Origin: Squalus acanthias
Taxonomy: Eukaryota
Reading direction: 5' to 3'
Assembly: GCA_030390025.1 (NCBI GenBank)
Contig: CM059430.1
Location: 4,526,001-4,590,000, forward strand
Length of the DNA stretch: 64,000 nt
The notes beneath the pieces are model-generated. The model ran no database searches, had not been told where the DNA came from, and was given only the letters and a program-made list of their open reading frames with translations. The translations under genes were made by a program, and so were the position numbers. Below, one piece after another: positions 13,386 through 46,155 of the stretch. Every line of letters begins with the position of its first letter. Within the stretch, counting starts at the first letter, position 1.

Positions 13386-15267
13386 AAGAAATTATTTCCA
13401 TGCTGCATTTTATTTTAACAATTACAAAATGTAAGCAAAGTAATGAGTTTCTGTACCAAATTATGTATACAATATAATATCTCATTTAGGGATTGACATC
13501 ACCATAGAGACAATTAATACTAATCATAAAAGTGCACATTTTTTGTTGCCCTTTTAAAATTATTCTATTTATATTTTAATATGATTACCTATATGACTAG
13601 GACTGTGCATTACCTTTTGAACCTCTGTATTACAGTGAAATTATAATTTGCTGCTTTTAAATATAATGATATTAATTGTTTGATTAAAATAGCAACCATT
13701 AAATAAATTCTTGCAATTCAAGCTGATTTGAATGATGCTGTTTATTCCCCAAATGAAATCGTAAAACAGAACGAATCACCAGTATATCTGTAATTAAGCT
13801 CGTGCAACTCGGGGAGAATTGACTTGTTCAATATAGTTTGTATTCAGCTTTTATGCTACAATATTTTTATTCAAGTCTTTTCCACAGTATATTTTTTATC
13901 CACATTTCTGCAATATTATAGTTAACTAATGTCCAAAACTCATGCTGAGATATTCTGGGTATTAAATTAAATAAATCAAAAATGTAATTAATGGTGGGAG
14001 GTGCTCATTCTGTGGGGCACTTATTGGCTATTACTTACCTGACACAGCCTATTATCTTGTAGTAGTGATAGATAAGAAACCAAGCTAACAGGATTTCAAA
14101 CGCCAAATAGTAAATCTATACAACATTTATGGAGATGTTATAGATCCCAGTGTCTCTACAAATTATCATTGAACTGCTAAAAAGAGATGAATATAAATGT
14201 ATTGAATTCAGCACTATGACTACAGTGTTTAATCTTCACAAAGTTTTAACATGTACAAATTTTTAAACACACGAAGCTCAGCTTCTGAAACCATCCATAA
14301 TATCTGCTCAATGTTCGACCTCAGTACTGAGATCGACCACCATTACAAGATAACTTTCAACAACCACGCTCATTTTTATTTGATGCTAATTGTATAAATT
14401 GTTGATTGAAACTGCACCTCGACAGCGATATTATTAAACAGACTGTGCAGTGAGAGATTGCGAAAAATTAGCAATATGATAAAAAACTGATATTGATTAA
14501 ATGTGATTTACCTTCACTCAAGAATCAGTATTTTGGCATCGAAAAAGGTGAAACAAAACATCAATAAAAACTGAAAATACCAGAAAAGCAGGTCTTATTT
14601 GTTTTTATTTGAACATCGGCAGTTTTTTTTTAAACCTGTAAAACAAAGCTTCCAACAACTTCAAATGTACTCAAGCAACAATTGGCATATTATTTCAAAC
14701 TGTAGCAAATCAAATACCATTTTATTCACTGAATAATTTATAGCAATTGGATAACACAGTAGTGAAGGTGTGTTTTTCGCATGGCAATAGTTGTGGATTG
14801 AGTTCTAGCAGCGACCGAGGGTTGTGGCTCACCAGCCAATGCCTGTTATAAGCTTCATCAGCTCCAACTCAAGCTGCTTCAGTGGCTGGTGTATCCCACC
14901 AACCAATACGTGTGATGAACTCTGTCAGTTCTCACCCAGGCTGCTACAGTAGCTGATATCTCCCACCATGGGGAAAAATAAAACATTCACTTGATTCCGC
15001 CCAATGGAAAATATACTTCCTGTCATGGGATTCATGGCAGGCCACCAGTGCGAGAAGGTGCGGAGCGACCGGCAGCTAATTTGGCTGCCAGCCAGCTGCA
15101 GAAAGGATATATGTACAGCTGAATGACGGTGAAGCAGGAGGGAATAAAAGAGGAAAACCAACAACAAAGCGCAGAGAGAAAATGCGGATAAAGAATATAA
15201 TAAAATAAACAAAGTACAACCTAAATAAAGAATAATGCTGTTATCTGTTACGAAATTAAAGTATCAA

Positions 15268-15956
15268 TGGCCTCGATTTTTAATTCACCCAACTTGGGGG
15301 AAACCAGGCAGTTAAAATGGAGTGGGAGACTTAACCGCGCTTTTCTCGCTCCGACATGACCGACTTTAAATTGCAGGCGGCAATGACACTCATCCCAAGC
15401 CAAAGGGGTCCTCTTTGAAATTGCAGATCAGGCTGTAATGACATCATCGGGGCCCGATCTGCAATTTTAACCCGAGGCCTGTGCGGGGGGGGGGGGGGGG
15501 GGCAAGGGGGCAATGGTGGCTTCCCTGCCAGGCCAAAGCAGCTGGGAGCTGGATCGAGGGTCAGGTGAGGTAAGTTTTACATTGGTTTTAAGCTTCCATG
15601 TGGAACAGGAGGAGCAAGTGTGCTGCTCTGGGTGCCACATGGTAACCGTGGGCTTCCCTAGCCACGGGCTTCCTGCCCCTCCCCCTATCTCTCTGAACAC
15701 ACACCCCCCACTCCACCCCACCACTTCCCTGACCGCAGAGGACAATTTCCATGGGTCTTCAGAGGCGGCCTCCTGCCGCCCAAATTCCCACTCCCGCCCG
15801 CCAGCCAGGCAGTGACTCCTGCTGGGTTCGGGCGGGAGTCCAAGCCTGAATATTTAAATGAAGCCCGGCAGTCAAAAGCTCTCCGGGCCTCGGCACGCGA
15901 GTTTGTAACTCACCCTGCACTCCCTCCCCCAACCCCCCGACTTAAAATCCAGGCCC
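15268..15956. mobile_element. Non-autonomous DNA transposon (MITE, probably PIF/Harbinger-type)
   Basis: Imperfect TIRs tggcctcgatttttaa / cttaaaatccaggccc. GC- and CpG-rich interior with sharp boundaries against AT-rich flanks. Confidence 0.7.
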
Positions 15957-16099
15957 ATGTCTATAGGCCTGGGGGAGGGTTGCAAAGCTGATGTGCAAAT
16001 GAAATACTGAGAGTGTTTCTGATGTAATGGTGTATTTTGATACAAATAACATAATAATAGCTGCGTGTCAGGACAAACAAACCAAAACATTTGCTGAAC

Positions 16100-16387
16100 A
16101 CTTTGTGAGCCATACACCTTTAAATCCTGTGTGAAATCGTGATTTAGGGGATGACTCCGACAATAAAATAGCCTCAGAATCTCTGAGCTGGGGATGGAAA
16201 AGCAGAAGTGGCTCCTATTCATTATTTAGTTGGAACTGCACGTGTGTGGATGTTGAATGAAGACAGGGTCGAGGTCAGAGTCAGAGCTTAGCTGTGTTGG
16301 TCCCTATGGTCGGATGCACTGTGCAGGCTCACACACAGTGAATGACCACTTTGGAGAGGGCAGTTGCCACCTGTAGAGCCATACCTT
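16100..16387 (+). mobile_element. Old SINE copy (same family as 24405-24670 and 34330-34622)
   Basis: Shares blocks such as gtgtgtggatgttg, aggctcacac..gaatgaccac and gagccatac with the reverse complement of the other two copies. Confidence 0.5.
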
Positions 16388-16592
16388 AGTATGAGCTATA
16401 GCCTTCAGGAGACAACAGGAAAGGAGGAAACAATTGGAGGGCAACGTGAAGAAATAAAAAGAAAACAGTACCAGGCAGCAGCAATATAGAAAACAGCCAA
16501 GAACGTCGACAAAAGTAAATGAATAAAACCTCAAAGGGAAAAAGGAACTAATTTGATAGCTTAGGTATTGGATGAATTCTCATCAAATACAC

Positions 16593-17231
16593 TGGCTCCA
16601 ATATTGCTCGTCTCCTTGCCTGGACATTGGACAGATGGAGCACTCCATCAGTCCAGGTTTCAAAGTGCCATGGCCCTGTCACATCCCTGGCAGAGGCCTA
16701 TTCCTTCACAGAGCCTTGCTGGGAACACAGGCACTGATGCAGGCTTGAGACATCCGTGACTGCAGGCCTGGCCATGGGTCTTGGGGCTTTCTGGCCGCTG
16801 TTGGAGAACAGCAGACAGAAGGCCTCCAGGTCCAAAGATCAGATAGATCCCTGCAAAAAAAATGTAAGACTTACCCGTTGGGCCTTCTGTGACTTGCTGC
16901 CTGGCTTCCTCAGATCCTTTGATCTGAGGGGTCCCAGATGGAACAGACACTGCCAGCTTCTTTGAGTGCCCCTGTGCGTTGGTACTCTTCGGTCACAGGA
17001 GAAGGACAGTGAGAGGAGAGATTCAGGAATCCCCCCTGTGATGTCTCATTTCCGTGAGCATGCTTGAACTGTGCCCCCAGGGCTGCAACCTTTGTGGAAG
17101 TCCCAGAAATTTCAGGACAATGTCGAGGGGACGGAGACCTGATGTACTCAGTCTCTGCCCCTCCTTTTCCTTTCCATTGTGCCTTGGAAATGAACGTTTC
17201 CCAGGTACAAGGGAGACGAATATTGGGGCTA
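16593..17231. mobile_element. MITE-like element with about 30-bp imperfect TIRs
   Basis: Left end tggctccaatattgctcgtctccttgcctgg matches the reverse complement of the right end, tagccccaatattcgtctcccttgtacctgg. Confidence 0.7.
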
Positions 17232-17915
17232 CCATGTAGTTATTTCATCAAACCACCAAAAGATGGCAGTTAGACAAACCGGAAGTGCTGAAACGCTCCA
17301 AAGTACAAAAACAACAATATTCTACCAGTAACCATTTTTATGTTGCCACAAGTTAAATTCTCTCTGCTGTCTCTAGTAGTTCTCGAAATGGTTAGGACAT
17401 GACTCACCGCAACTTTATTACTAAGACAGATTTTGATGTAAATTCTCTCGTCTGAGTATTAGAACTAAAATACTGGTGAATGGAAACAAATGAACCATGT
17501 CAAACAGCTACATTTATTACAGCAAAAAAGATACTAAGCAATGAAAAGTGCACTTTTATCGATTTCAGTACGATATTAAGAGGCCTGAGTATTCTATGGG
17601 GCATCTGGGTTTAAAATACTGAAGCCTGCAGAATAAGGGACAGGCATGCCAAGCTTTTTTTGATGCAAAAAGTGCTGTAGCTCTGAAGTAGGGGTGTGGA
17701 ATTTGGGGCAGAAGGCAGAATTGCCGGAGATACGCCTGTTCTAAAATGCACGCTAAATTCCCAGAGAGTTGGCAGCTGGCTCATGAAGGCCAAAGATACA
17801 GTCCCATAAATTCTGCCATTTACACCAGAATTGCACCTGACTTAAGTTCAGCCTATAGAAAAGAGGTTACCTGCATGACTTGTCAAACCAGCAAGTGGTT
17901 GAGTTCACAGACTTT

Positions 17916-18657
17916 GGGCTGGATTTTGATACTGGGGCGGGTTGGGGTCGTGTCATCCACTTTTCGTGTTATCCACCCGACTGCAATTGGATGTGGGAGA
18001 TTGATGCGATTTTCACCTAATTGGGCAATTGAGTTCCAGCATGTGGGAACCCATGAACCAATTAGTGTTTTCAGTCTGAAAGTCGCCTCTGATGATGTCA
18101 TCATTGCTGCTGCATTGAAGGTCTGCAAAGACTGCCTGGCCTTTGCTGTGAGAGGACCTGGATGCAAAATGAGCAGCAGCAGCCCTAAGTCTGCTCCCAG
18201 ATATTTTTGCACCACCATTCCCAGATATGTCTCCCATCCACCACCACTCCCAGATATGTCTCCCATCCACCACCACTCCCAGATATGTGTCCCATCCGCC
18301 AGCCAGCCAGCCAACCAAATGTGTGCCTGCCTGCTAGATAGTCAGCTATCCAAATGTGCTCCCGCCAGGTTTCACATTCGTGGTTCAGAACAGGCGTGCT
18401 TCACATAGAAAAAGGGTTAAAATCACAAAGGCCTTTCAAAATGGCATTATAGAGACAATTTAGTGCTTGTTAAGGGTCTTAACAGCCTATCCCGCCTCTT
18501 AGAGGTGGGACAGAGTCGGGACCAGCAGACATGATTTAATGAAAATTGCGTGGAGGCGGGATGGAGGCGGGCTTGTGCCCGCCCACCAGTTTTCGCAATT
18601 TTAACCCCCCCCACACGCCTCCAAACCCACCTCCACGGGTCAATGAAAATCCAGCCC
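17916..18657. mobile_element. MITE nested in the Harbinger remnant
   Basis: Perfect 12-bp TIR gggctggatttt ... aaaatccagccc. Internal blocks resemble those of 15268-15956. Confidence 0.8.
18210..18297. repeat. 29-bp minisatellite, 3 copies
   Basis: caccacca(c/t)tcccagatatgt(c/g)tcccatc repeated at 18210, 18239 and 18268. Confidence 0.9.
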
Positions 18658-18886
18658 ATAGAATATTCACAAAATTTGTCTGAAACATCCGGTTTGACAA
18701 AAGTGATTAGAAATATCTTTTCTCATCTCTGCAACTAAGAAGGTACTGTGCATACGGCAGGGAAATCTTTTTGTTTCCCACCCTTCTATCTTGGAGTCCT
18801 TACTAAGTGGTTCACTATGGGCATTGCGTATATGTCCTGATGATGGAGGCAGAACAGGAGCAGGAGGAAGAGGAAATGACAGGTTA

Positions 18887-19045
18887 AGACTGCACCGAAG
18901 GCGGTACCCTTCTACCAGAGTCTACAGATTACACGACTCCTTCAATGATGTCTCAGAAGAGGACATAGGACTACTAAGGAGACAATGGTTCAGTAACAAG
19001 GCATAGAAGAAACTTGGTCTCCCATTACAAACTGACCTCTGGACA
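18887..19045 (+). pseudogene. Harbinger transposase (HARBI1-like) N-terminal remnant
   Basis: RLHRRRYPSTRVYRLHDSFNDVSEED...RRQWFSNKA resembles the RRRYP..RVYR...SF.D.SEE...RR..F N-terminus of Harbinger transposases. A stop follows and no DDE core is visible. Confidence 0.6.
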
Positions 19046-19984
19046 ACGTCTCAAACACAAAAGACATAGAAGAGATTTAATTCAGAACTTCTTATCACAG
19101 CTGGGTTTACTGTGCATCATGCCTATCCCAAGTGCCTCTCTGTGCTGTTCTTAAACCTATCCTGGTGGGGTGATACCTAAGGCCAGTGATACTAGTGATG
19201 CTTGGGTGCACTGTGGTATTATGGACTTCTTGGGACCAAGGTGGTCCTCATTTCAGGGATTCTGAGTCCAGGAAGACTCTTCAGCAGGCTCTCTTGCCAC
19301 TGCAAGCATGTGGGCCGCCTGGTCCTGTATCCTGGCACCTACATGAGTAGGCATCTGAGGGAGCTGCCTGGAAAGCTCACATCAGCTGTCAGCTGGAGAG
19401 AGGAGGGCATCTTGAAGGTGGATTCTGCCTACACCACATGTGCAGGGAACGGTTCTGATTCTCAGTGCCCACCGACCTGCAAACCTTGAGAGATGTTGGC
19501 CCAAAGCTCTTGGAAGCCACTTTCCATTATTTTTCCAATCTCTGAAGCCTGTGATCAAAGCATTGAACTTTGGATGCATTGACTAGTCTGGAGGCCTCTA
19601 TTTTACATGGACACTTGCAGGTGTTTGTGATACCACCACCTGCTCTAGATAGTGATTCATTGTGCTGAATCCTTCTCTGATATTGATACTGAGGATAGCA
19701 TTGGACTTCACCATGATACCTACGACTTATCTCAGGTCTCAGGTCCTGGGTCAGATGTTCCTCAGTGCCTCCATGTGAGTGTAATGTTCATCACGCATCC
19801 TTTTCTTTTTAAGAGCAGGACCCTAGAAATCTGAGTCCACAGACTTGAGAGTCAGGCCCTATCAGATTCTACTTCTGCCTCTGATGCCTCTGGCACTGTG
19901 AGGGTCATGAATGAAGGAATACCATATATATACTGTATATATAAAGAGACAGCAAGGAAGGGTCAGGGAACAGGTAGCATAACT

Positions 19985-20200
19985 TAGCTACTCTGGTGAG
20001 ATCATTAAACTTCTTGCACAGCAAAGAATGCATGGGTTCTAGGAGGTGGCACTCACTGCCACAGCCATCTCCCTCCATAAAGTGTGTTTCACATTCTTGC
20101 AGGTCTCCGGATTCCACCCCCAACCAGATTGTCTTTCCTGCTTCATATCTCCATTACGAGGACATGCAGGTTTGGCTCCAGGAAGTTTGCCACTCATTTC
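19985..20200 (-). pseudogene. Harbinger Myb/SANT-like DNA-binding protein remnant
   Basis: Two frames join to give LWREMAVAVSATS...CKKFNDLTRVAK, matching the W..(I/V)A..VS......C.KKFNDL trihelix/Myb-SANT signature. Frameshifted. Confidence 0.65.
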
Positions 20201-21477
20201 TTCAAGCTGGCTGCCATCCTTCTCTCTCAGGTTACCTTCTTCCTGCAGTACTGCCACTGCCCCTTTAAGCAGCAGTCGTTTTAAAAAAATCCTGCTCCAC
20301 TGTCTCTGCCTCTCCTCTAGGTATTTTCCAGCTCCCCCCTCATGACTCCCGCCTCCATAGCAGTCTTCCATTTCCATCACAAGCGTATCGGAGGTGTTGC
20401 AGGCTGTACATCCTGCACGCGTTTTCGTATTTAAATGATCTGACTCGGCAATTTACAGCAGGATCACGCTGTAGGTGGGTAGAATTTCCACTCTGCCTTA
20501 CTTCTGATGGCCCCATTGCATCATCGGATTTCCAGGCCTTAATACCTAAATTCCAATTGTTTTCAATGAGAGGAGAGGAGATACTGAAAAATAATCATGG
20601 TTGTCGGGTTTTGAAGCAACTGAAACATTGATTTTCCATAGTCTTCAGAGAAGCAGGCTGTAAAACCATCCCATGCGAGACCCTTTTTCAAACAGCCTGA
20701 ATGACCTGCAATGCTCTCCATTCAAATCAATGGGGCTTCCATTTATGTAACTTTTGTCATGCTGGTGGTGTGATGATATCACTAGTAGGTATGCGGTGCA
20801 TTCAGGAAAGGTTTATTGACTGTCTTTTTCAATGCAACAGGATATTTAGTACCTTTGGACCCAATCCCATGAACTTAGAACAAAAAAAAGCTCCAAATCC
20901 GCCACTATTGGAATCCATGCAAGATGACAACTGAGAACACCAACACGTGTGTCTGTAATAATATGTACGGACGCACAACCAGATTGGTCTTATTTCCTTC
21001 TCCACATCATGTATTTATACACCATTAACGCTACGCCTAAAAGCAACCATTGCAGTACATACTTGATCTATTTTCACATATTTTAAATTCAGTGATTTAG
21101 AAAGTTATCAGTACCACCTTTATTCATATGGTCACATAGTATTGGCGAGTTTCAGTTTGTTTATTTTTTCCCCGTCTTTCAGTGAGTCAACCTTCAACCT
21201 TTGGAACTTTTTTATTCCCATGACCAAACCAGCTTCGGTAACTATCAGAAAGTATGTTCAGAAAATGTTATCCTTCACATTCACCCAGATCCAAATAACA
21301 GAAACATGGGTTTCTAAAGACTTTTTACAGCTCCCATCCCCAGTCGATTCATTTTTTCCACTTCTACTATTCTGATATTGAATATTACCAGGCTAAATAT
21401 TTCACTTTAACAGTTGGCAAAACCGAGCAGACATTAACTGTTCTGTCAAATTTGTTTGTTTATTGACATATTGGTTT

Positions 21478-21590
21478 TACATGGAATTTTACAGCACAGA
21501 AACAGGCCATTCGGCCCAACAGGTCTGTGCCGGTGTTCATTCTCCCCACGAGCCTCCTCCCACCCTACTTCATCTCACCCTATCAACAAT
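21478..21590 (-). mobile_element. CR1 3' UTR fragment
   Basis: tacagcacagaaacaggccattcggcccaac is the reverse complement of the CR1 3' UTR seen at 27880-27905. Confidence 0.8.
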
Positions 21591-22854
21591 TTTGTTGCTG
21601 TAAAATGTTATTAACTTCTGCTGCACTTGATAGCCTAGAAGCAGTGCAACCGATTCTAAGGATGATTTATTCGTTAATCATTTCTGTTTGGTGCAAAAAT
21701 ATTTACAGCGCCCTGGCAGTATTTCCTTCTTATTGCATCCCTCTCGAAATATTCAAATTTTGAAGAAACGTCAACGTCGTAAGTGTGGTTTATAGAATGC
21801 GAAACACATTTAAAACAGCCTCTGTATTTCAACGCTGCCACCAACAGCAGCCCTGACATCAGCAACAGTGCTGTGACGTACGCAAAGTGGCACAACTGTC
21901 ACCAGAGGGTCAGAGAATCCGCCTTCTCACCTGCCATTTAGAGGCAACACGGTCACTGGCAGCGGACGTATACGATGCAAGTGTAAATGCCAACGCAGAC
22001 CATTTGTTTCTGCTTACACGTGGACTGAGCCCTCCGTCTGCTTGTACAGCCAAGCAGTAGAGTTTTAGATTTGCCGGCCTACACTGACCTTTTTGCTTCC
22101 ATCATTTTCGAACTGCTGCGCACGTCGGAAGATTCCATGCGCACAGCTGTGTTGTGTCGCTGCCCGTGTTGCACCGCAGTGCAAATGGGCCAAATTGCAG
22201 AGGACTGTAAGGCCCAGCAGATTGCAGAACACTTCTGCTCGAAGTTTGTTCTTTAAATATAAAGGCAGCCTCAAAAAAGGTCAGCACTTCCCTGGACGAA
22301 GCAGTGGATTACCATATAGGCCCTGTGCTGTAAATTTAAGTCGGTCAGAAATAAACCAAAAAGGTTCAGGGCTTAGAGCATTGCTTTCTGCAGAATGCAG
22401 CAGCTGTAATGGGATCTGCCATAAATTCAAAAGCTGCGGAGCTGCAAGGGGTTTGGAAAAGGTTTATTTAACCTGACTCCAGCCCTCAATCCAGAAGTTT
22501 GAGATCACTCTCAGGGTGGAAAGCTCAACGGTTAATTTTTGGAGGGAAGCTTTGTTCCGCGGGCCTTTAAAAACTGCAGTACCGACATCAACAGCTTCAG
22601 ATTGCTGTGCTTTCGTCGTTCGGCCTTTGCCAAATCCACTCAAGCACCGGCTCAAATAATGTACATTTGAGGAAGGGTTTATACCTGAAACGTCAACTGA
22701 CTTGCGTTTTCTCAACTGATACTGTACGACCTGCTGAGAGTCTCTGGCGTTGTCTGGTTTTGTTGCTAAAGCAAGTAACCTGCTCATTTCCCTGATAAAT
22801 CTCGAAATGAGCACAGCCAATATGTACAGTGATTTCAACAGGTGAAAGTCACAT

Positions 22855-23157
22855 TTGATACGTTGCAGGAAAGGATGCACCAGAGCATGGTACATCGGCG
22901 AGACCATGCAGACACTGAGACAACGTATGAACGGACACCGCGCAACAATCGCCAGGCAGGATGGTTGCCTCCCAGTCAGGGAACACTTCAGCAGTCAAGG
23001 ACATTCAGCCTCGGATCTGCGGGTTAGCGTTCTCCAAGGCGGCCTTCGAGACACACGACAACGCAAAATCATCGAGCAGAAACTGATAGCCAAGTTCCGC
23101 ACCCATGAGGACGGCCTCAACAGGGATCTCGGGTTCATGTCACGCTACAGAACGTGA
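22855..23157 (+). CDS. Penelope-like GIY-YIG endonuclease domain (truncated TE ORF, no RT)
   Basis: LIRCRKGC..AWYIGET..TLRQRMNGHR...PV.EHF...H......VL......RQRKIIEQKLI..F.T...GLN matches the PLE GIY-YIG pattern, including the CCHH residues. The frame is uninterrupted. Confidence 0.9.
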   Translation: MIRCRKGCTRAWYIGETMQTLRQRMNGHRATIARQDGCLPVREHFSSQGHSASDLRVSVLQGGLRDTRQRKIIEQKLIAKFRTHEDGLNRDLGFMSRYRT

Positions 23158-23383
23158 CTCGACGTCGTTGTCTGTTTTTCCAGTTTTTAAAAAAAAAGTT
23201 AAAAGCTTAACTGCAGACGGCAGCATTTGACACGTTGGACCCCCTGTGACCCACCTCATTGTCTTAGCTGGACTCTGATGTGTCTTTGATGTAATGCCTC
23301 CCTAACAGATTGTATCTCTGCAGACACATTGTTCTCTGTCTATATATACTTTGTAATCGATTTGTATTCCCTCACTGTACCTG

Positions 23384-23418
23384 TACCTGAAGAAGAAGCA
23401 GCGCTCCGAAAGCTCGTA
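23384..23418 (+). ncRNA. Minimal type I hammerhead ribozyme motif (copy 1)
   Basis: UAC-CUGAAGA-A-GAAGC-agc-GCUCC-GAAA-GC-UC-GUA. Core boxes are intact, stem II has one mismatch, helix I is UAC/GUA, and the stem III region is palindromic AGCU. Confidence 0.7.
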
Positions 23419-24313
23419 ATTTTAAATAAAACTGTTGGACTATAACCTGGTGTTGTGCGACTTCTCATTTTTGATATGGGGACAGTCCAGTTATTCTAAA
23501 CTTTCAGTTACAGATTTCAACCGCCGTTTGTTGAACATCGGATCCACTCCAACATGTGAAACAATACCACAGTGACCAACCACCGTAACAAATACACTTG
23601 CAACATTAATTTAGTTAACTGTCCATTGTAAGAATATTGAACTCAGAATAGGAAACATTGGAGCAATTTTTACCATGTGAAAATGGTACTGTGTATAATT
23701 AGTGCTGAATAAACATTAGGGTTGCTTAATTCTGCACAATTACTAAGAATATAAAACTGTGTTTCAGTTGGAATCAATGAGGAAATAACGTGTTCAACTT
23801 TTGATTCACCGCCCTGCAGACTTCACGTTGTTGCAGTGAGATGTTGAGTCAGGGACTGGTAGAACTCCAGGGTGAAACATACCAGGTCATATTTCCTCTT
23901 CTGTGCACCGAGTTGCTCAATCTGTGGGCTTCTCTTTTACCATCCCAAATCGACAACTTTGAAACTGTCAAACTGTAGCTAAAATGTCAAGTTAGCAACT
24001 CAAGGGCCATTGATGAAGTTGTAATCTGATAACTCAATATGAAATCATAACAAAAAAAAACCAGTAACTATATATAATGAATTGTGTCAAATGAAAGTGG
24101 GTTCAAGTACAATCACTTGGGAAGAATTTTATGAAACCAAAAATTGGTATTCAGATAATTTCGAACAAATAGCTTCAGATTTGCATTTGCCAAAAAGAAA
24201 TGAGAAAAGAAAGTGTTAAAAATATAAGGCGATAATACAGATGGATGTAGCTTCTGAATATGGTCACTTAGGGTCTGGTATTCTGAACACGTGTAGCAAT
24301 AATAGCTTCCCTG

Positions 24314-24372
24314 CCACCCCACCACCCCCGCCACCCCCACCACTCCCGCCACCCCCGCTGCCCCCCCCACTG
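24314..24372. repeat. C-rich low-complexity repeat with a 9-nt period (ccacccccg-like)
   Basis: gccaccccaccacccccgccacccccaccactcccgccacccccg seen directly. G-quadruplex-prone on the minus strand. Confidence 0.8.
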
Positions 24373-24404
24373 CCCTCCCTGCTCTCGTAAAAGGCACTTT
24401 TTCC

Positions 24405-24670
24405 TGGTTCTATAGGCACCAGCCACCCTCCACCACTCCCAGCCATTCTTCATGTGCGAGCCTCGACACTCAGCATTGGGCAGCTGCTCCACCACTCGGC
24501 CCATCTTAGCTGAGCCTGATTCTACCCACACACACACGTCCAGCAGGAGTCATTCGTTAGTAATCAGGAGGGGAATTTCCCTTCCTAGCCCAGTGATGTT
24601 GACGGCACTCGCGGCACCCTTGCTACTGTGCTGCCTGACTCAACAGAGGGTTGAACCTGGTTCACACTGC
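24405..24670 (-). mobile_element. Old SINE copy
   Basis: ccattcttcat..., ccagcagg, atcaggag.gg and cctagcccag blocks are collinear with 34340-34520. Confidence 0.55.
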
Positions 24671-24737
24671 GCAGTTTTTTAATATTATTCATTCTTGGGA
24701 TGTGGGTGTCGCTGGCAAAGCCAGCACTTACTTGAAG

Positions 24738-25057
24738 TGTTAGCCTTGGCTCAGTGGTAGCACTCTTGCCTCTCAGTCAGAAGGTCGTGGGTTCAAACCC
24801 CACTCCAGACATTTGAGCACAGACATTGTCAGAGGCGCTATCTATCAGATGGGACTTTAAACCATTGCTCTCTCAGATGGATGTAAAAGATCCTATGACA
24901 ATATTTGAGGAGCCCTCCCAGTGTCCTGGCCAACAGTACTCCCTCAAGCAACACCACTGGCTAGTCATCTCATTGATGTCTGTGGGACTTTGCTATGTGT
25001 AAACTGGCTGCCACATTTGCTTAAAAATTATTACTGTGCTTCAAAAGTAGTTCATTT
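24738..25057 (+). mobile_element. Degenerate SacSINE1/DeuSINE-type tRNA-derived SINE
   Basis: A box tggctcagtgg and B box ggttcaaaccc. The body is collinear with 60395-60860 but has internal deletions. Confidence 0.85.
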
Positions 25058-25197
25058 ATAAAAACATAGAGATTGCCTTATGCAACAGTACACTGAGTTA
25101 ACCAATAAATACCTATGAATAGTAAGTAAAGCTACAGTATATATCAAAAGAGAATGAAGCCAGCCAAGAGAAGGAAACAATGGGCAATACTGGCATT

Positions 25198-26262
25198 AAC
25201 AACAACAACAACTTGTATTTATATAGTGCCTTTAATGTAGTAAAACGTCCCAAGGCGCTTTACAGGAGTATTATCAAGACAAAAAATTTGACACCGAGCC
25301 ACATAAGGAGAAATTAGGGCATTTGACCAAAAGCTTGGTCAAAGAGGTAGGTTTTAAAGAGCGTCTTAAGGAAGAAAGAGAGGGAGAGAGGCGAAGAGGT
25401 TTAGGCAGGGAATTCCAGAGCTTAGGGCCTTGGCAACAGAAGGCACGGCCACCAATGGTTGAGCGATTATAATCAGGGATGCTCAAGAGGGCAGAATTAG
25501 AGGAGCGCAGATATCTCGGGGAGTTGTGGGGCTGGAGGAGATTACAGAGATAGGGAGAGGCGAGGCCATGGAAGGATTTGAAAACAAGGATGAGAATTTT
25601 GAAATCGAGGCATTGCTTAATCGGGAGCCAATGTAGGTCAGTGAGCATAGGGGTGATGGGTGAACGGGACTTGGTGCGAGTTAGGACACAGACAGCCGAG
25701 TTTTGGATGACCTCAAGTTTACGTAGGGTAGAATGTGGGAGGCCAGCCAGGAGTGCGTTGGAATAGTCAAGTCTAGAGGTAACAAAGGCATGGATGAGGG
25801 TTTCAGCAGTGGATGAGCTGAGGCAAGGGGCGGAGACAGGTGATGTTACGGAGGTGGAAATAGGCAGTCTTAGTTATGCTGCGGATATGTGGTCGGAAGC
25901 TCATTTCAGGGTCAAATATAACACCAAGGTTGCGAACAGTGTGGTTCAGCCTCAGACATGTTAGGGAGAGGGATGGAGTCAGTGGCTAGGAAACGGAGTT
26001 TGTGGCGGGGACCGAAAACAATGGCTTCGGTCTTCCCAATATTTAATTGGAGAAAATTTCTGCTCATCCAGAACTGGATGTCGGACAAGCAGTCTGACAA
26101 TTTAGAGACCGTGGAGGGGTCGAGAGAAATGGTGGTGAGGTTGAGTTGGGTGTCATCAGCGTACATGTGGAAACTGACGCTGTGTTTTCAGATGATGTTG
26201 CCAAGGGGCAGCATGTAGGTGAGAAATAGGAGGGGGCCAAGGATAGATCCTTGGGGGACACC
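25198..26262 (-). mobile_element. L2-clade LINE, 5'-truncated, about 1.06 kb
   Basis: Minus strand encodes GVPQGSILGPLLF, YADDTQL, WMSRNFLQLNIGKTE, LHWLPI...FKIL and GGRAF....PKLWNSLP. Tail is aggcactatataaatacaag(ttg)n. Frameshifted. Confidence 0.95.
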
Positions 26263-26304
26263 CAATATTACTCTCCATTGAAGTCAGGTGAGAGTAATAT
26301 TGGG
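26261..26304. repeat. Perfect 15-bp inverted repeat (central hairpin of a MITE fragment)
   Basis: cccaatattactctc - cattgaagtcaggt - gagagtaatattggg. Confidence 0.85.
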
Positions 26305-26692
26305 CGGGGTGTCGGTCTACCCGATCCCATGGGTGTCCAGATGGACGGCTAGGTTAAAATTACTCTCCTGTATCTCTAAAGCACCATCCGGGGCTGGGCT
26401 ACTCAGACACTGGGTAGTTCTCCATGAAGAAGGGTCGCTAAATACCTACAAGTGCTTCTGCACTAATTCCACTTTTCGGGAGAGTGATGCCAACCTGATT
26501 TCGGCCCGGCACTTTCTCAGATTTACCTTGTCCTGTGCCTCTGGATTCCTGTAAGCCTGTTGAAGGCTGGTTTGATTCCAGAGGCTTCCATTTTCTGAGT
26601 TGATCTCCTCTTTCTTGATTTACAAGGATGTTACCAGGACTGGGAGGTTTTACCTATCAGAAAAGGATGAACAGGCTGGGTCTCTTTCCTCT

Positions 26693-27111
26693 ATTTTTTA
26701 TTCGTTTATAGGATCAGGGCGTCACTGGCAATGCCAGCATTTATTGCCCATCCCTAGTTGCCCTTGAGAAGGTGGTGGTGAGCCGCCTTCTTGAACCGCT
26801 GTGGTCCGTGTGGTGATGGTACTCCCAGAGTGCTGTTAGGCAGGGAGTTCCAGGATTCTGACCCAGCGACGATGAAGGATCGGCGATATACTTCTAAGTC
26901 AGGATGGTGTGTGACTTGGAGGGGAACTTGGAGGCGGTGGTGTTTCCACGCGCCTGCTGCCCTTGTCCTTCTAGGTGGAAGAGGTCGCAGGTTTGGGAGG
27001 TGCTGCCGAAGAAGCCTTGGCGAGTTGCTGCAGTGCATCTTGTAGATGGTACACACTGCAGCCACGGTACGCCGATGGTGGAGGGAGTGAATGTTTTAAG
27101 GTGGTGGATGG
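26693..27111 (-). mobile_element. Second LINE family 3' end (CR1/L2 group) inserted in the CR1
   Basis: ORF 26754-27065 AAVCTIYKMHC...WNSLPNS...FKKAAHHHLLKG with 3' UTR gggatgggcaataaatgctggc. A short piece of the same tail lies at about 24685-24730. Confidence 0.85.
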
Positions 27112-27223
27112 GGTCTTTAAAATTATGAAAGGTTTTGATAGAGTAGACACAGAGAGAGTGTTTCCACTTGTGGGGAAGAGCAAAACAAGAGGCCATCAAT
27201 AATAGATAGTCACCAAGAAATCA

Positions 27224-27655
27224 TGATGTGGAGATGCCGGCATTGGACTGGGGTGGACAAAAATGAGAAGTCGCACAACACCAGGTTATAGTCCAACAGA
27301 TTTATTTAATTTTACAAGCTTTCGGAGCTTTCGCTCCTTCTTCATGGCCGGTCTTTCCAGTTTTTAAAAAAAAAAAACTAACACAAGAACCAACACAAAT
27401 GGAGAGGATATGCAGCCAGCAGGTGTTTTGACACGTTGGACCCCCTGGGACACATCTCATTGTCTTGGCTGTGCTCTTAGTGTGTCTTTGATGTAGGGAA
27501 AGATTTGAATACATTTTTTCTGTGTTTATATTGTGAATTCTGGGAGATTCTCTCACAGCTACCCTACCTGAAGAAGGAGCGACAGCTCCGAAAGCTTGTA
27601 AAATTAAATAAATCTGTTGGACTATAACCTGGTGTTGTGCGACTTCTCATTTTTG
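27224..27655. mobile_element. Non-coding Penelope-derived insertion with inverted terminal repeats
   Basis: 87-bp inverted repeat 27258-27344 / 27569-27655 with one mismatch. A 34-bp extension lies at 27224-27257. The 12-bp direct repeat accaagaaatca flanks it at 27212-27223 and 27656-27667. Confidence 0.92.
27565..27600 (+). ncRNA. Minimal type I hammerhead ribozyme motif (copy 2)
   Basis: UAC-CUGAAGA-A-GGAGC-gaca-GCUCC-GAAA-GC-UU-GUA. Perfect 5-bp stem II, palindromic AAGCUU and helix I UAC/GUA. Confidence 0.75.
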
Positions 27656-30600
27656 ACCAAGAAATCAAATAGGGAATTCAGAAGAAACTTCTTTACTCAG
27701 AGAGTGGTGAGAATGTGGAACTCGCTACCACAGGGAGTGGTTGAAGCGAATAGTATAGATGCATTTAAGGGGAGGCTAGATAAGCATTTGAGGGAGAAGG
27801 GAATAGAGGGTTATGCTAATAGAATTAGATGAGGAAAGACAGGAGGAGGCTCGAGTGGAGCATAAACGCCGACATGGACTGGTTGGGCCTGTTTCTGTGC
27901 TGTATATTCTATGTAATCCTATGTAATCTTTAATTTAATGTAATGGTTGAAAATAGGTCTAGGTGGTAATGTTTAGCTGCTAAGCTGTTTAAAGTGGCCT
28001 GTTCCTTTAAGGCTACTACGCAATACTCACTGTGGGGAAGTTGTCTAATAGGCATGCCCTGCAGTAAAGCTAATTTTGGAGGGAAGTTTTTCCAGACTGG
28101 CACCTGTTACTAAATCTCTGGCTTCCATCTTTTAGGATGAGGCCAGATTATCAAGATCAGATAAGCTTGTAGGAATAGGCTAGCTAGCTTTCTCTTTTCT
28201 TAATACTTTTGACACATCTGAAGTATGATGGACATTTATTAGACGCAATGTTTTATGTCAAAAGCCATTTATCAATAATGGATCTCCCATGGCATTGCTC
28301 ATGATACATAGTTTAAAAAAAATCAGTAACACAAATAAATAATGTTTTCCTAACTCACTGCAGGTAGAAAAATGAGTAACTTTGTTCCCCTCGCATACCA
28401 CAGTTACACAAGCAAATAAGTATATGCATGTAATGTGCTGTAGTTAAATAAATAAACAACCCCATGTATACAGTTAGTTACATTATTTTTCCTATCAAAA
28501 TTACCTCAGATCGAGCTCAAAAGGTCCTGCTTTACTTCATTTTGATGTTTTATATAAGAAAATGAGTTACCTTCAAAGGGTCTAAAGTGACCTCCTAAAG
28601 TTTTAGTGCTGCTAGTCCCCGGGCCTTTTCAATCATAAAAAGGGGAAAGAGAGGGGGAAGGGGAAGTTCTGGCACATTCTGTGAATGGCCAGTTTTGCTG
28701 TCAGCTGTAAAAAATAAAGTAATTAGACTCAGAAGGGAGACAGCCTCAGGGTGCATTCTGGGAGTGTTGTCCACAGAGTGACATCAGAGTTTCAAACTGC
28801 TACCCAGTGAAGCCTCTTTATTCATCCAACAGAATAATAACTGTCGGAAATCAGTCTCGGCCATCTGAAAAACGAGGTACGCAACTGAAGAAAGGGAGTA
28901 GTGTGGGAGGAGTGTATATCCACAGTGAAAGAATTTGGAAAGAATATTTGAGCAGTTCCGCCTAGAGACAGCAAAGCAAATGTTTCTTGATTAGTTTTTG
29001 GAAAATAAATAATTTGTGGGTTGTGGGTTCATGATCTGATGGTTTGGGAGTGGAGAATGTTCACTGTTTATGTTTTATGAGGATGGGATGCTGTTTACAA
29101 TTTTGGAGCCTAGTTGGGTTGGAATTGAACCAAGAGGATGGGCATTGCGGGAAAGAGTTAGTTAGGAGCTCATGTAGGTGGGAGCATGGCTCGTGTGGTC
29201 GAAATCAGGATAGAAGCTCATTCAAATAGGCAGACCTGGCCATAAGGCACCCAAGTGGGAAGCAGGGAAAGGAAGGTAGGGAAGATGGAGGAAAGGCTGG
29301 AGGGGAGGGGTCAACAGACAGAGCTACCAAGAAAGGAAAAGATGGGGACCAAAGTTGAGAGCAGTGGTAAGTTTACAAATTCATTTAAAATAATATAAAT
29401 GGGTAAGGAAATAATATATATAAAACTCTTTGAGACTTCCTCTTTGTCACACCTATTTCCTGTTGTCATGATTTAGTAATTCTTTTGTGATATTGGTAAT
29501 GCTAAGAGGCATTGCCTAAGATGTAACAGTAATGCCTGTTTCTATTAGTTTTAATAGGTAACTTCAACACCTGCTATTCAGACCTCCCATCACTGGTGGC
29601 ACTGTGGCACGAGTCACCCAGTTTTTCCAATATTTTGGCCCTTTACAACAACCACAGCTGAATGATAAACCATTTCGCTGATTAACTGTGAGCAAGGCTG
29701 TAGGAGAGTCACCAGTAAATAAAACAATGAAAAGGGAAAACAAGATACTTACAATAGCTGTTTGGTACTGTTCCTACTGTTTAAAATGAAGAAATCTGAA
29801 TAGAGGTAATCAGTGGGTAAATGACCGAATCAGGTGGAAGAAATTTGCCTAGAATACAATAATTTGCATGGTATTAGAATAAATCTGCATATCCGCAAGT
29901 GTGACGAAGGTACGGAACAGTGATAAAAATGTGTGCTAGACGTATCATTTTTATTATATTAAGAGAGATATAGATAGATTTATTCAGTGTAATCGACAGT
30001 GATGGATTTAGTGTGAAATGCTAAGTACCTTTTTCCTGGAATTTAGCCTGGTTCAGAAAGAAAGGGAATATTTAAATGACAGTCAAAAGTAAAACATGTT
30101 CTGAACTCTTAAAAAAAAAACTGTTCACACGATAATTTGATGAATAGAGTAATTCACTCCTCTGCTGGAGAAAGGATCAAATATGGCTACATGCCTTGGT
30201 TGGCAATCCAATGTCCTACTGCCGCAGGTGCCACACTGCACAATTACAGGTCACATTATAGCACTTGGATTTCTCACTTAACCAACTAGGTCCTCCATAG
30301 CACCAGGTTTCTCCTCGGCCTATCACATTCTATCAAGCAAGTCTATCATATCAATTAATTTCCACGCTGGTTCTGCTCAATTAAAGTTCAGTCTCAGCAA
30401 CGTAACATCCCCAGAATGATTTTAACTTGTTAACACCAAAAACTAGCTGACATTTAGAAATGTAGAGACAGGTCTTATCATAGAAAGTCACTGGCTACTA
30501 CTTAGACACTTGCAACGTAAAGGAAGTTCTGCACTACAGTGAAACAGAACAAGCGAGGGCTGCAGTTTAATCTGGCGTACCTGCAACAGTGCAATCCCTG

Positions 30601-31997
30601 GTAATGGAAAAGTGACCTTCAACTGCTGCACATATGGATAAAAAATTGTTTGTGCTAGCCTTGGAATTTTGCTCTCCCTTCCAGCAATAGTGGAATGGAC
30701 TCATGGCCAGGCTCAGGAGAATGGATATTGTTTGAGCATTAATTTCTCCGTCATGTGTGCTCGTTCTCCCCACTGCAGCAGAACAAAGCTTTAAAATGTC
30801 TGCCTTGGTGATGTAAGAACTCTATCTCAATCGTTTTTTTTTTGCAATGCATTAATGTGGACGATCACATGCTTGCACTGAGATGGAAGTTATTCCATTT
30901 TGCCCGTGTAAATAACAATCAACTCATTCAAGAGGGAATTCAGATAATTGTGCACAATCTTTAAACATCCTGGCCACCATGAGACACTCTCTCACTTGTG
31001 TTATTCGGTAGGTTCATTCATATAAGAACGGTCTAGAAATTGTTGGTGTGGATCCTCCATAATCACAATATAAAGTTACTGTGATCGTCTGGTGTTTCTC
31101 ATATTCTGAGCATTTAGCATTTACCTAAGCAACATATCTCCTTGGGCTGGGTTCAGCCAAGACATAATACATTGTAGGTCACATCAAAGCATTAGTCTTG
31201 TATCACACATTCTGACTAGAATAGAAATCGTAAAGGAATGTTTCGTTCCCCGTTATTGCAAAGCGCATTATAAAACTGCATTTTATGCTTTATTCAAACA
31301 ATTGATGAATAATTATTTTGGTATCTATACATCAAATACATCGATCCATTATCTTGGGTGATTATGCTAGGAAGGATGTGCTATCTAACGCACACAAACA
31401 CAAAATTTATTACCCAAGTAAAAATACTTGTTAAAATAGAAAAGCAAAGACATCAGATATAAGACTGTTGTTTCATTGAAGCTGGAAGAATATTTTTTAT
31501 GCATTTACTGTGTTTGCCACATGATCTATCGAGCTATCCTCAGTTACGATAGCATCTGTGGTAATACAGTAAATATTTTACACACTATTCTGATTTGACC
31601 CGCCTGTGGTTTGATTTGCTGCAAACTATGTACTTGCACTAAGTATTCTCTTATGTTGGGTTGATGGCGCAAAACAATTGGGAGCTGTTGGGCCGGATTT
31701 TGCAGTAAAAATAACAGTGAGGCTAACAGCGCTCACTGTGATGAACATGTAAATCGGACAGCAACTTCCGGCAACCGCACACATGCAGTTAAATGCGTAA
31801 ATCAGGAAGTTGCTGTCCGAGATGCACTGCTCCTCCAAAAGCTCAGCTATAATGGCATCTCGCTGAGAGACTTGCCATTGAAATACATGGAGCGCCGTGA
31901 AGTTGCTGGGCTTACCTGATATATGCCCACTAAACTCATCAGTAAAAGTTAGGGCTTGTCCATTCCAGTGTAAGTAAATTTTTAATGGTGTTATAAG

Positions 31998-32131
31998 CGA
32001 TGTTCCCTTTAAGCTACAAGGCCGCGCAGTTGGCTTGCGGGCTTTTCAATGCAAAGACCGCGCATGTGCGGTATTATTTGGCGCTCCTTAAAGGGACTGA
32101 ACGGCGCTAAGAAAAATTACAGGGAACATTG
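31998..32131. mobile_element. 134-bp hAT-like MITE nested in a MITE
   Basis: TIR c(g)atgttccct ... agggaacattg. Degenerate 8-bp TSD gttataag / gtgataaa. Central near-palindrome accgcgcatgtgcggt. Confidence 0.75.
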
Positions 32132-32463
32132 GTGATAAATCTTAATTACTGCCAAACAACCTCTCTGGCACTGAAAATGAACTTTAACAAGTGTGGAGTC
32201 TCATTCCTTCTGATTTTAATTATTGTTGGAGATTTTTTTTTAAATTCAATTATTTTTTACTTTTTCTGTCTCTTTTATCTCACTCTCTTAACCCATCTTT
32301 CTTTCCCTCTCTTTATTTTGCTTTCTGTACCTGATTTGACATTGAATTCAATATTCTAACGGAACTTACTGGTTCAGACTCTGTGCTGCTCATTCAGGAT
32401 TCTTCAATCTGATTGGTTAAGGAGATGCACTATTGTGTGCCCTGTTCACACAGGTCCCAGATC

Positions 32464-32479
32464 CCCTGTAGAGGGCGCC
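32464..32479 (+). promoter_or_regulatory. Candidate CTCF motif inside a MITE
   Basis: ccctgtagagggcgcc resembles the CCASYAGRKGGCRS core. Confidence 0.35.
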
Positions 32480-33054
32480 ATGCTTTTTGGTGTTCTCGGT
32501 CTGCCAGTCAAGCCCACTTAGAAAGTCAATGGGCAAGTGCAAGTGTAACAAACAGTTGGTGCTGTTTATTCGCCGCTGACCGCAAAATTCGGCCCATTAA
32601 CTTTTAGGCAGCTGACAAGTGGAGTGCCGGCCATTCGCCTGTTTCTCCGGCGAAGAGGTCATTGTGATAGAGTCTTGGGCTTCCTTTGGATCAGACCAGC
32701 GAGCTGCGTCGCCAAACTAGTGACCGAGGCAGCTTGCTAGTTTTGGGCCACAGGAATGTCAGCTGTCTGGGAGGCTGGCGCCAGCTGCAGGTGAGTGTTG
32801 TGTGGGTGGGTGGGGGGGGGGGGGGGCGCGGGGGGGGAAGCAAGACTGAGGGGCAGGAGCCCAGGCCGGCAGGGGCCGGCAGTATTTTTGTGGGGCCCGG
32901 AGGAGCAATTTTGCAGTTGTTAATTTACCCACCTCTATTTCCCCTTCTCTGTGGCCCACTGTGCATTACCGCCCTCATTCCAGCAGTTGTCTTATCCTAA
33001 CAGTTTAGTTAACTTTTCTGCATGAAGGTTTTCCATACTATTTACTATCATATA

Positions 33055-33291
33055 GCTCTATAAGATCACCTCTCAGATACTTCCACTCAAGCTGAAAAGC
33101 CCAAGTTCCTTCAGTCGCTGATCAACACTCAAGACTAGCACTTGAAGGTCTCCCTTGTGTCTGGACAGAATACTCAAGGTGTGAGTCTGAGCAGAGCATT
33201 GTAGAGTTTGAGCATGACTTTCTCCAACTTCCTTTCTGTTGTCCAAAGTTCCCTCTGTAAAGTGCCCTGGGGAATTTTCTGATGCAAATAG
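33055..33291 (-). mobile_element. Old CR1 fragment interrupted by the solo LTR
   Basis: aagatcacctctcag...tcaagctgaaaagcccaag and cagaatactcaaggtgtgagtctg resemble the reverse complement of the CR1 LRGDL region. Confidence 0.55.
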
Positions 33292-33782
33292 TGTTGTGGG
33301 ATTTCTCTCTGCCCCGCGGCAGACGGAGACGAGCGTGTACTGGTTCCAAGCGATCTTTATTCAAGCACGTGCAGGGAGAGGCCCTCTCAGTCTGAGCTGA
33401 GACGGGAGTCTAATTTTCACATTCGAGCAGTTGGCTTATATATAATCTTACATCTTGTTTCCTTCACATCTTCGGGACTTGGCCAATTAATTGTCCAAGT
33501 CACGTACACTTAGTCACATCTCCACAAAACACATCTTGTTTATCTCATTTGCTCTGTTTCCACATCTGCCATTGTTCTATCCAATTTACGTACGCTTAAC
33601 CACATCTTCGCAAATCACATCTTGGCGGCCCATTGTTCAATGTATGGCCTCCTCGCCTTCTTTTACACCCCCAATCATCGTGTAATATGCTTTTTCCAAC
33701 TGTCTTTGTTCTGCCAGACTTCTCCTTTATTACATCAGCCAGCTAGTCAGTTAAGCTGCTAATCTAACTTTTAACCCCTTCA
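33292..33782 (-). mobile_element. Solo LTR (491 bp) of an LTR retroelement or endogenous retrovirus
   Basis: TG...CA termini with a perfect 5-bp TSD aatag (33287-33291, 33783-33787). On the minus strand it starts TGAAGGGG, has a TATA box at about 33436-33445 and AATAAA at 33356-33361, and ends CCCACAACA. CpGs are retained. Confidence 0.88.
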
Positions 33783-34253
33783 AATAGCATTCCATAAAGT
33801 TGTTGAAAATGTCAAATTTATTGACATAACTTTTACTTTCAATGTAAACAAAGAATACCGTTCATATTGTTATCATCACCACTTTTACCTATTAAGAAGG
33901 TATTGCACTATTTCGGGTTTTGAGAATTATCCTTTTAATCTCACAACTTTATCCCAGCATAAATAAAAAGATACACTTTGTCCTCTACAGGTACACCACA
34001 AAATGTCCATAAGTCACAAGTGCTGTATTTGCAAACAATAATTTATTATAAGTGAGTTATTTATCATAATTAGCCTAATACATGTAGTTTATTTGCTATA
34101 CCTAGTGGGTGGCCTTTTACCATTGGACTAATATAAATATGTAAGGAGCATAATCTCCAACAGTAAGGTAGGCATTTCTTTTCCTAAAAGTTCACCCCTC
34201 CTCTCCTGAACGTGCCAAATCTTGCTTTGGTTCCCAGGTTCAAGAGTATTCAA

Positions 34254-45138: not shown

Positions 45139-46155
45139 ATGGCGAATTTACACAGCAATTTTAGCATCGTAGCGAAGCAGCTAAAGTGGCAGTAAAACAG
45201 CGGCGTCAGATTCCCTCAAGACCGCAACGGAAAACCCTGGCAGTCGGGGGTTTCACAGCAGGAGTAGGAATCTCTTGCTGCAGTGCGACTCCGGTTTCGT
45301 GCAGGTCGCGATGCCAGAAAGGACACTGCTCAGCAGCAAAGTATCATGACACAATGATGTCACCCGATTTGTGAGCCAGCCTATTAATCAGGACACAGTG
45401 GAAGTGCCAGTATTAACTGACTCTCCATTAACTATTCAAACTCAAGTCTGAATTGCTTTCCCCTTCCCTTTGTGCAGTTAAATCGCTTTGAAAATAATTT
45501 CAGTATTGCACACATTTATAATTACAAATGAGAGATCTGAGTCATTATTTCCCCCAGGCAAATAAAACTGAAATATGTCAGAAATTGACAATTTTTAAAT
45601 TCTGGGTGTTTCAGTGGAGTAAATTTCCAATGGGCTTGACAGCTTTGCTTATCTAATCATTAGTCCCCTGTTGAAGTTGACCATTCCAGCCCCTCATTAT
45701 CTTCGTTGCAATGATTCTCTTCGCTTCCCTTCTAAAATCTGTAGTAAGAGAATCACAGGGGATTTGTATGAAGTCGAGAACTTTGCCATCTCATACCTCT
45801 TTCAGTGTGCAAGCATATTTCAGACGTAGCAGCATTCACATTCATATTTGTGTTCTTCCTCGTTCTAAAAGCAGAACAATTTAGTCGAGGGACTGCTTGG
45901 AGACAGGGGGAGTTGGAGGGAAAATAAGTAAATAAATAACACGTTTTCTCTACTTTTTGCAAACAATGTGCAGTGGCTAAAGTAAGTAAGGTGTAAATAG
46001 CCTTTGAGAGGACAGGAATAGTTGGGGCAAGCAGCAGCCATTTTCCTGGTATAATGGAATTTTGGAATGTGGCCTGTGTGCATATTTAGTAATTAAGACT
46101 AAGAAATGAGTTGGATCTTGGACCAAGGTCTGAGGTGGACCACTAGCTGATAAGG

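Follow-up and report, generated by a model that had tools for sequence, protein, structure and literature searches.

We find that two short motifs in a 64,000-nucleotide stretch of the genome of the shark Squalus acanthias (contig CM059430.1, positions 4,526,001 to 4,590,000, forward strand; hereafter the window) are, with a probability of about 0.9, minimal type I hammerhead ribozymes in the terminal repeats (pLTRs) of two independent, truncated insertions of an abundant Neptune-like Penelope retroelement, and likely inactive. A descriptor for the minimal hammerhead, scanned over both strands of the window, returned exactly two strict matches. By comparison, 30 simulations of the window under an order-3 Markov model averaged 0.03 strict matches each, and none matched a tight form of the descriptor. 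The two matches are:

23384..23418, + strand: minimal type I hammerhead A, with a cut predicted after 23415 and an A.C mismatch in stem II (A23396).
27565..27600, + strand: minimal type I hammerhead B, with a cut predicted after 27597, predicted to be sequestered in a fold-back hairpin.

The scan bears out the original prediction of two type I motifs at these positions, and the cuts had been placed correctly. Written by segment, copy A reads TAC CTGAAGA A GAAGC AGC GCTCC GAAA GC TC GTA and copy B reads TAC CTGAAGA A GGAGC GACA GCTCC GAAA GC TT GTA; both carry an extra base between positions 9 and 10.1 together with a G10.1-C11.1 pair. In copy B the core and stem II are perfect. In copy A the mismatch falls on stem II pair 2, at a position that is G in 99 of 100 genome-wide pattern matches (among the matches listed). 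An inverted copy on the minus strand (27313-27344) begins at U4, with neither C3 nor helix I's 5' strand present, and is therefore not a complete core. An Rfam search of window positions 20000-32000, with E values up to 5, matched no hammerhead model.

Each hammerhead is embedded in a recognizable insertion:

22856..23473, + strand: insertion A, a 5'-truncated Neptune-like Penelope element comprising the endonuclease end, the whole 3' pLTR, the hammerhead and a short tail.
22856..23157, + strand: C-terminal GIY-YIG endonuclease remnant, an open frame ending in a TGA stop (Pfam GIY-YIG E=0.007, under the curated cut-off).
23419..23473, + strand: short tail of insertion A, whose end coincides with that of the short-tail class.
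27212..27223, + strand: left target-site duplication of insertion B (ACCAAGAAATCA).
27224..27655: insertion B, a fold-back of an inverted and a direct arm placed head to head, flanked by the 12-nt duplication.
27224..27344, - strand: inverted arm of insertion B, with a long tail up to the element's ATG and the hammerhead remnant at 27313-27344.
27342..27655, + strand: direct arm of insertion B, which retains the greater part of the 3' pLTR together with the hammerhead and a short tail; it overlaps the inverted arm by 3 nt.
27656..27667, + strand: right target-site duplication of insertion B.

Insertion A is 97.6% identical to one genomic copy (L023) and 86% identical over 634 nt to a natural full-length copy (L081), whereas the direct arm of insertion B is 98.7% identical to another copy (L001) and 83.9% to L081. 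A and B are only 76% alike across 251 nt, yet copies elsewhere in the genome match each of them at 97-99%; judged by these identities, the two are independent insertions of different subfamilies. The empty site of insertion B is represented by a joint from 27211 to 27656 (a 444-nt skip in which 12 letters match both flanks) in contigs of each of the four sequencing runs compared. The host sequence of insertion B is itself a repeat, and the empty site is visible in that repeat's other copies.

The Penelope pLTR origin, already proposed in the original prediction, is supported by the GIY-YIG remnant and by the intact relative. All 150 scored genome matches to the remnant are 93-100% identical to it (one is the window itself), and two of them, L081 included, carry 919-codon open frames. 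L081 opens with a stub pLTR that includes a hammerhead, has an ATG where the long tail ends, and continues with an 892-amino-acid open reading frame (ORF) and a 3' pLTR with a second hammerhead; the two hammerheads are identical and lie 3,029 nt apart. Hammerheads in both pLTRs are likewise present at L082 and L152. The L081 ORF encodes a reverse transcriptase (RT; Pfam RVT_1 E=1e-8) followed by a C-terminal GIY-YIG endonuclease (EN), for which Pfam support is weak, and contains the DKG, YIDD and C..C-YIG..H..H motifs. Between RT and EN, at position 753, sits the linker CHGNLCKTC, and a similar motif occurs in 28 of the 40 top homologs; according to PMC8557442, a CX2-5CxxC linker marks Neptune or Nematis and not Penelope/Poseidon. 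We thus regard the parent as a Neptune-like EN+ Penelope-like element (PLE), placed by its linker motif and not by a tree. Among named proteins, the nearest come from sharks, at 79-91% over part of the length, followed by turtle proteins at 42-44%. The family is abundant: a 26-nt tail sequence has 97,107 exact copies in the genome, at least 73,150 of them with GAAA in register.

Alternatively, the copies could belong to a non-autonomous retrozyme (tandem circular-RNA) family in place of truncated autonomous PLEs: short hammerhead-only pieces are common, and retrozymes have been described both from one chondrichthyan and as derivatives of PLEs (10.64898/2026.07.22.740005). However, insertion A includes endonuclease coding sequence, the pieces grade continuously up to full-length ORFs, and helix I has 3-4 bp as against the canonical 6. 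Moreover, the locus contains no head-to-tail hammerhead array with a 150-450 bp repeat, and the sampled copies are dispersed or fold-back. A retrozyme origin is therefore very improbable.

We examined conservation in a sample of 100 tail-selected sites (among the matches listed) that were picked regardless of the ribozyme. A hammerhead can be parsed at 85 of them; among the remaining 15, 14 look shortened at a junction and one is missing a base. C3, G5, A6, A13, A14, A15.1 and U16.1 are invariant in the 85 parsed copies, and G8, A9 and G12 are each kept in 84. Position 7 is free (C37/G34/A11/T3), whereas position 17 is U in 74 copies, C in 11 and never G. The extra A between 9 and 10.1 and the G10.1-C11.1 pair each occur in 84 copies. 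The stems vary in a paired manner: helix I pair 3 is CG in 53 copies, UA in 23, UG in 3 and other in 6; stem II pair 3 is AU in 72 and GU in 13; and stem II pair 5 is CG in 78, UA in 4, UG in 2 and other in 1. Compensatory changes are found at helix I pair 3 and stem II pair 5, and the remaining changes are mostly wobble. Taken together, the free N7, the near-invariant core and the paired helix I changes show a family under selection on RNA structure, as read from its copies. In this sample the covariation check proposed earlier came out positive, with few independent events.

The original prediction had also taken the differing stem II loops as a sign of such selection. Loop II ranges from 3 to 9 nt in the parsed copies, and the agc/gaca difference between A and B is a subfamily difference. 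The gaaa loop of the inverted copy is one base off the GACA loop of its partner arm, and a 4-nt GAAA loop occurs in none of the 85 copies; the most fitting reading of it is a private mutation rather than selection. What stands of the argument is the conserved family core with its covarying stems. Among the subfamilies, one has a palindrome, AUCGAU, in loop II (16/85), a possible second dimer contact, and the one that includes L131, L133 and L148 combines U4C with a compensated U-A pair in stem II.

The palindromic positions 15.2-16.2 are GC in 84 of the 85 copies. A third hammerhead in the window, absent from the original prediction, belongs to another family:

22664..22764, + strand: decayed second-family Penelope hammerhead and tail; core at 22664-22697, with T replacing C3 and an ACGU palindrome.

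This sequence has 39 other genome matches at 77-85% identity, and the second-family pattern has 15,379 exact genome matches. In this family helix I is GUU/AAC and the stem III palindrome is ACGU instead of AGCU; CG occupies the palindrome in 26 of 28 matches, although 20 of those loci were selected for CG. The use of AGCU in the main family and ACGU in the second supports a need for a self-complementary stem III, in agreement with the earlier claim that the palindrome requires a second copy to pair with. Remains of a PLE ORF lie upstream on the same strand at 6 of 20 pattern-selected second-family loci and at 0 of 19 loci from a DNA search. A pyrimidine tract that terminates in CAG overlaps the 5' end of helix I in the majority of the 20 loci, which recalls the intron end described for Drosophila virilis in PMC4209133.

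If the hammerhead requires a partner, could A and B serve each other? In the original prediction, the two copies could in principle join through AGCU in a shared + strand pre-mRNA and cleave it: both lie on the + strand 4.2 kb apart and share the UAC/GUA helix I and the AGCU palindrome, and the isolated 35-mers can indeed be drawn as a heterodimer at -8.2 kcal/mol (folding energies and pair probabilities are from ViennaRNA). In context, however, the copy B ribozyme pairs with the inverted arm of its insertion in a 91-bp fold-back hairpin (duplex -156 kcal/mol), which leaves stem II a probability of 0.0, and this arm, 224 nt upstream of the ribozyme, is made first in a + strand RNA. Copy A, with its mismatch, reaches a stem II probability of 0.06 or less, and its monomer fold has +0.1 kcal/mol. 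Even designed dimers of minimal hammerhead ribozymes (min-HHRs) cleave weakly, as reported in the main text of PMC4209133. Neither the ORF list nor an exon-candidate scan gave a convincing host gene, and none of 20 selected candidates has a Pfam match below E=0.02, though the region could lie in a long intron; over 14000-33900, none of the 15 contig joints inspected among 544 has GT..AG ends, and the contigs lie mostly on repeats. The model is hardly credible: an A+B dimer in a + strand pre-mRNA is contradicted by the B hairpin, the A mismatch, the separate insertions from different subfamilies and the absence of a host gene from these searches. The likely dimer is instead that of an intact element, whose two identical hammerheads stand 3,029 nt from each other, and the hammerheads at our locus are likely inactive relics. 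As for an intron in the pLTR, none of the 13 contig joints listed on L081 has GT..AG ends, but two pLTR bins are uncovered in 2 of 4 runs, and this result carries no weight.

The insertions also record how the element's RNA was copied. In the 100 tail-selected pieces the tail ends are bimodal: 60 are short, 39 are long and stop at the ATG, and 1 runs into the ORF. One long and one short tail are combined in 29 of 31 head-to-head pairs (p=2e-7 versus 0.5), the two exceptions being an unrelated pair and a complex insertion. Of the 31 pairs, 27 share a target duplication of at least 7 nt, in most cases 12-13 nt long. Such a pattern would arise if both nicked target strands primed reverse transcription at two fixed sites of the RNA. 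At the other end, the 5' ends of 28 of the 100 pieces fall 25-47 nt before the cut, on the 5' edge of the hammerhead or slightly ahead of it; L081, L082 and L152, in which the hammerhead continues into the ORF, have their starts about 45-51 nt upstream. This cluster possibly marks a transcription start or an RT stop. As a separate observation, the first 3.1 Mb of G000:C1 (loci L101-L166) has insertion hot spots: in 14 of 60 short-tail flanks another insertion occupies the same site (controls 2.45, maximum 7), and the flanks resemble other repeats.

The endonuclease-bearing relatives offer close parallels. According to PMC8557442 and PMC3846280, Neptune-clade EN+ PLEs share a single ORF with RT then GIY-YIG, the CX4CxxC linker, DKG, pLTRs, an inverted 5'-truncated copy and a tail of 30-40 bp, often at one end only. 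The shark family differs in that the one-end tail is near-absolute (29/31 pairs), the duplications are mostly 12-13 nt, the long tail reaches no further than the ATG and all of the hammerhead is upstream of the ORF. In PMC11167929 (Frangieh et al. 2024), the hammerhead of the Anolis element PAc cleaves only with the element's protein, uncut RNA is the main template and there are two RT start sites. The shark family shares with PAc two fixed 3' ends corresponding to two internal RT start sites, and its copies, too, derive mostly from RNA intact at the ribozyme. PAc, unlike the shark family, belongs to the Poseidon clade and its ORF starts inside the hammerhead; moreover, PAc showed no strand difference in start site in vitro, whereas the shark pairs use one site per end.

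Beyond the linker-based placement of the parent, several observations weigh against our reading of the family. The 85 copies are not independent as regards covariation, since a few events at the subfamily level account for the covarying pairs, and one subfamily (6/85 copies) carries the core change U4C. The double hammerhead is not the lowest-energy dimer (for BB, -16.9 versus -25.1 kcal/mol). Of the tail-selected pieces, 97/100 extend past the cut site and 0/100 start at it, so the template would have been RNA either uncut or re-joined at the ribozyme. To look for a footprint, we collected pieces truncated near the cut (986 matches, ~4.4% of pieces after capture correction) and took 99 of the 100 listed matches, 91 distinct after duplicate removal. 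Among these, 16 start at +1 versus 4.4 expected, 13 of 70 when pieces with automatically detected microhomology are set aside, but clean host junctions give only 3 of 22 (p=0.09). Counts are also raised at -3 and +3, while -1 and -2 show no spill-over; two of the rows at +1 resemble near-duplicates; and helix I complementarity itself creates microhomology at the cut site. The +1 excess, a confounded one that puts about 0.8% of all pieces at the cut, is a weak hint of a cleavage footprint. An AAA insert at the cut in L206 suggested a cleavage scar; this idea was rejected, as insertion scars genome-wide show no excess at the cut (7) over control sites (3 and 7). With ~0.8% of starts and no excess of scars, there is little direct genomic sign of cleavage.

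These same observations, the read-through of the cut, the 5' ends clustered upstream of it and the lack of scars, would also be explained if the hammerhead shape were kept as a protein or promoter element of the PLE (for binding, a pause or a start signal), with cleavage minor in the life cycle. In PMC11167929, catalytic mutants of PAc insert unreduced in vitro, and PMC8557442 describes Naiad PLEs that thrive without canonical hammerheads. By contrast, the family follows catalytic rules (a free N7, an H17 that is never G and a GC or CG palindrome in two families), and the small +1 excess points the same way. We therefore hold this explanation to be a serious but unlikely one. Instead we lean towards selection on the RNA of the parent element: its 5' and 3' hammerheads would pair through A-G-C-U, exchanging helix I strands, and cleavage of the dimer, likely helped by the element's own protein, would trim the RNA to unit length. 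More doubtful is a further scheme in which a protein dimer would make a staggered cut of 12-13 nt and use two fixed priming sites, always one long and one short; its template would be hammerhead-cut unit RNA re-joined as a circle, and the +1 starts would stem from RNA left unjoined.

The shark hammerhead is a known kind in a new host. Min-HHRs occur in the pLTRs of metazoan PLEs and have been reported for Xena, Poseidon and Neptune of fishes (PMC4209133, main text, on which the comparisons in this paragraph draw). As in those ribozymes, we find the type I core, the extra base between 9 and 10.1, G10.1-C11.1 and a palindromic 15.2-16.2 without helix III. Further likenesses are one hammerhead in each of the two pLTRs, about 3 kb apart, many single or opposite-strand copies, and covarying subfamilies. 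A stem II of 5 bp and a helix I of 3-4 bp set the shark family apart, as does its copy number: at least 73,150, plus 15,379 of the second family, compared with ~4,000 in coelacanth and ~9,000 in Xenopus (search methods differ). A literature search returned no paper on shark PLE hammerheads; the text of PMC4209133 names no shark, and its supplement may hold such rows.

Other repeats surround the insertions. Between A and B lie a remnant of a long interspersed nuclear element (LINE) RT on the minus strand (25274-26187; Pfam RVT_1 E=0.005) and, at 24740-24960 (+), a repeat that by eye resembles a tRNA-headed short interspersed nuclear element; LINE-like pieces with very high contig depth occupy 26700-27110. 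A repeat end at 33292-33650, starting with TG, carries AATAAA on the minus strand, is 97-98% alike in contigs of three runs, and by eye resembles a solo long terminal repeat. An exon-like frame at 45798-46001 (-) gave an APOBEC2/NAD1 Pfam hit at E=0.02, below the cut-off, and is probably due to chance.

The locus itself is of little import, being two broken repeats. The family, on the other hand, bears on the role of PLE hammerheads in living cells, for it provides intact parents and subfamilies with natural compensatory changes, and its about 10^5 insertions allow template ends to be counted. The rule of one long and one short tail, together with the fixed duplication length, places a sharp constraint on PLE integration, beyond the published statement that tails occur often at one end.

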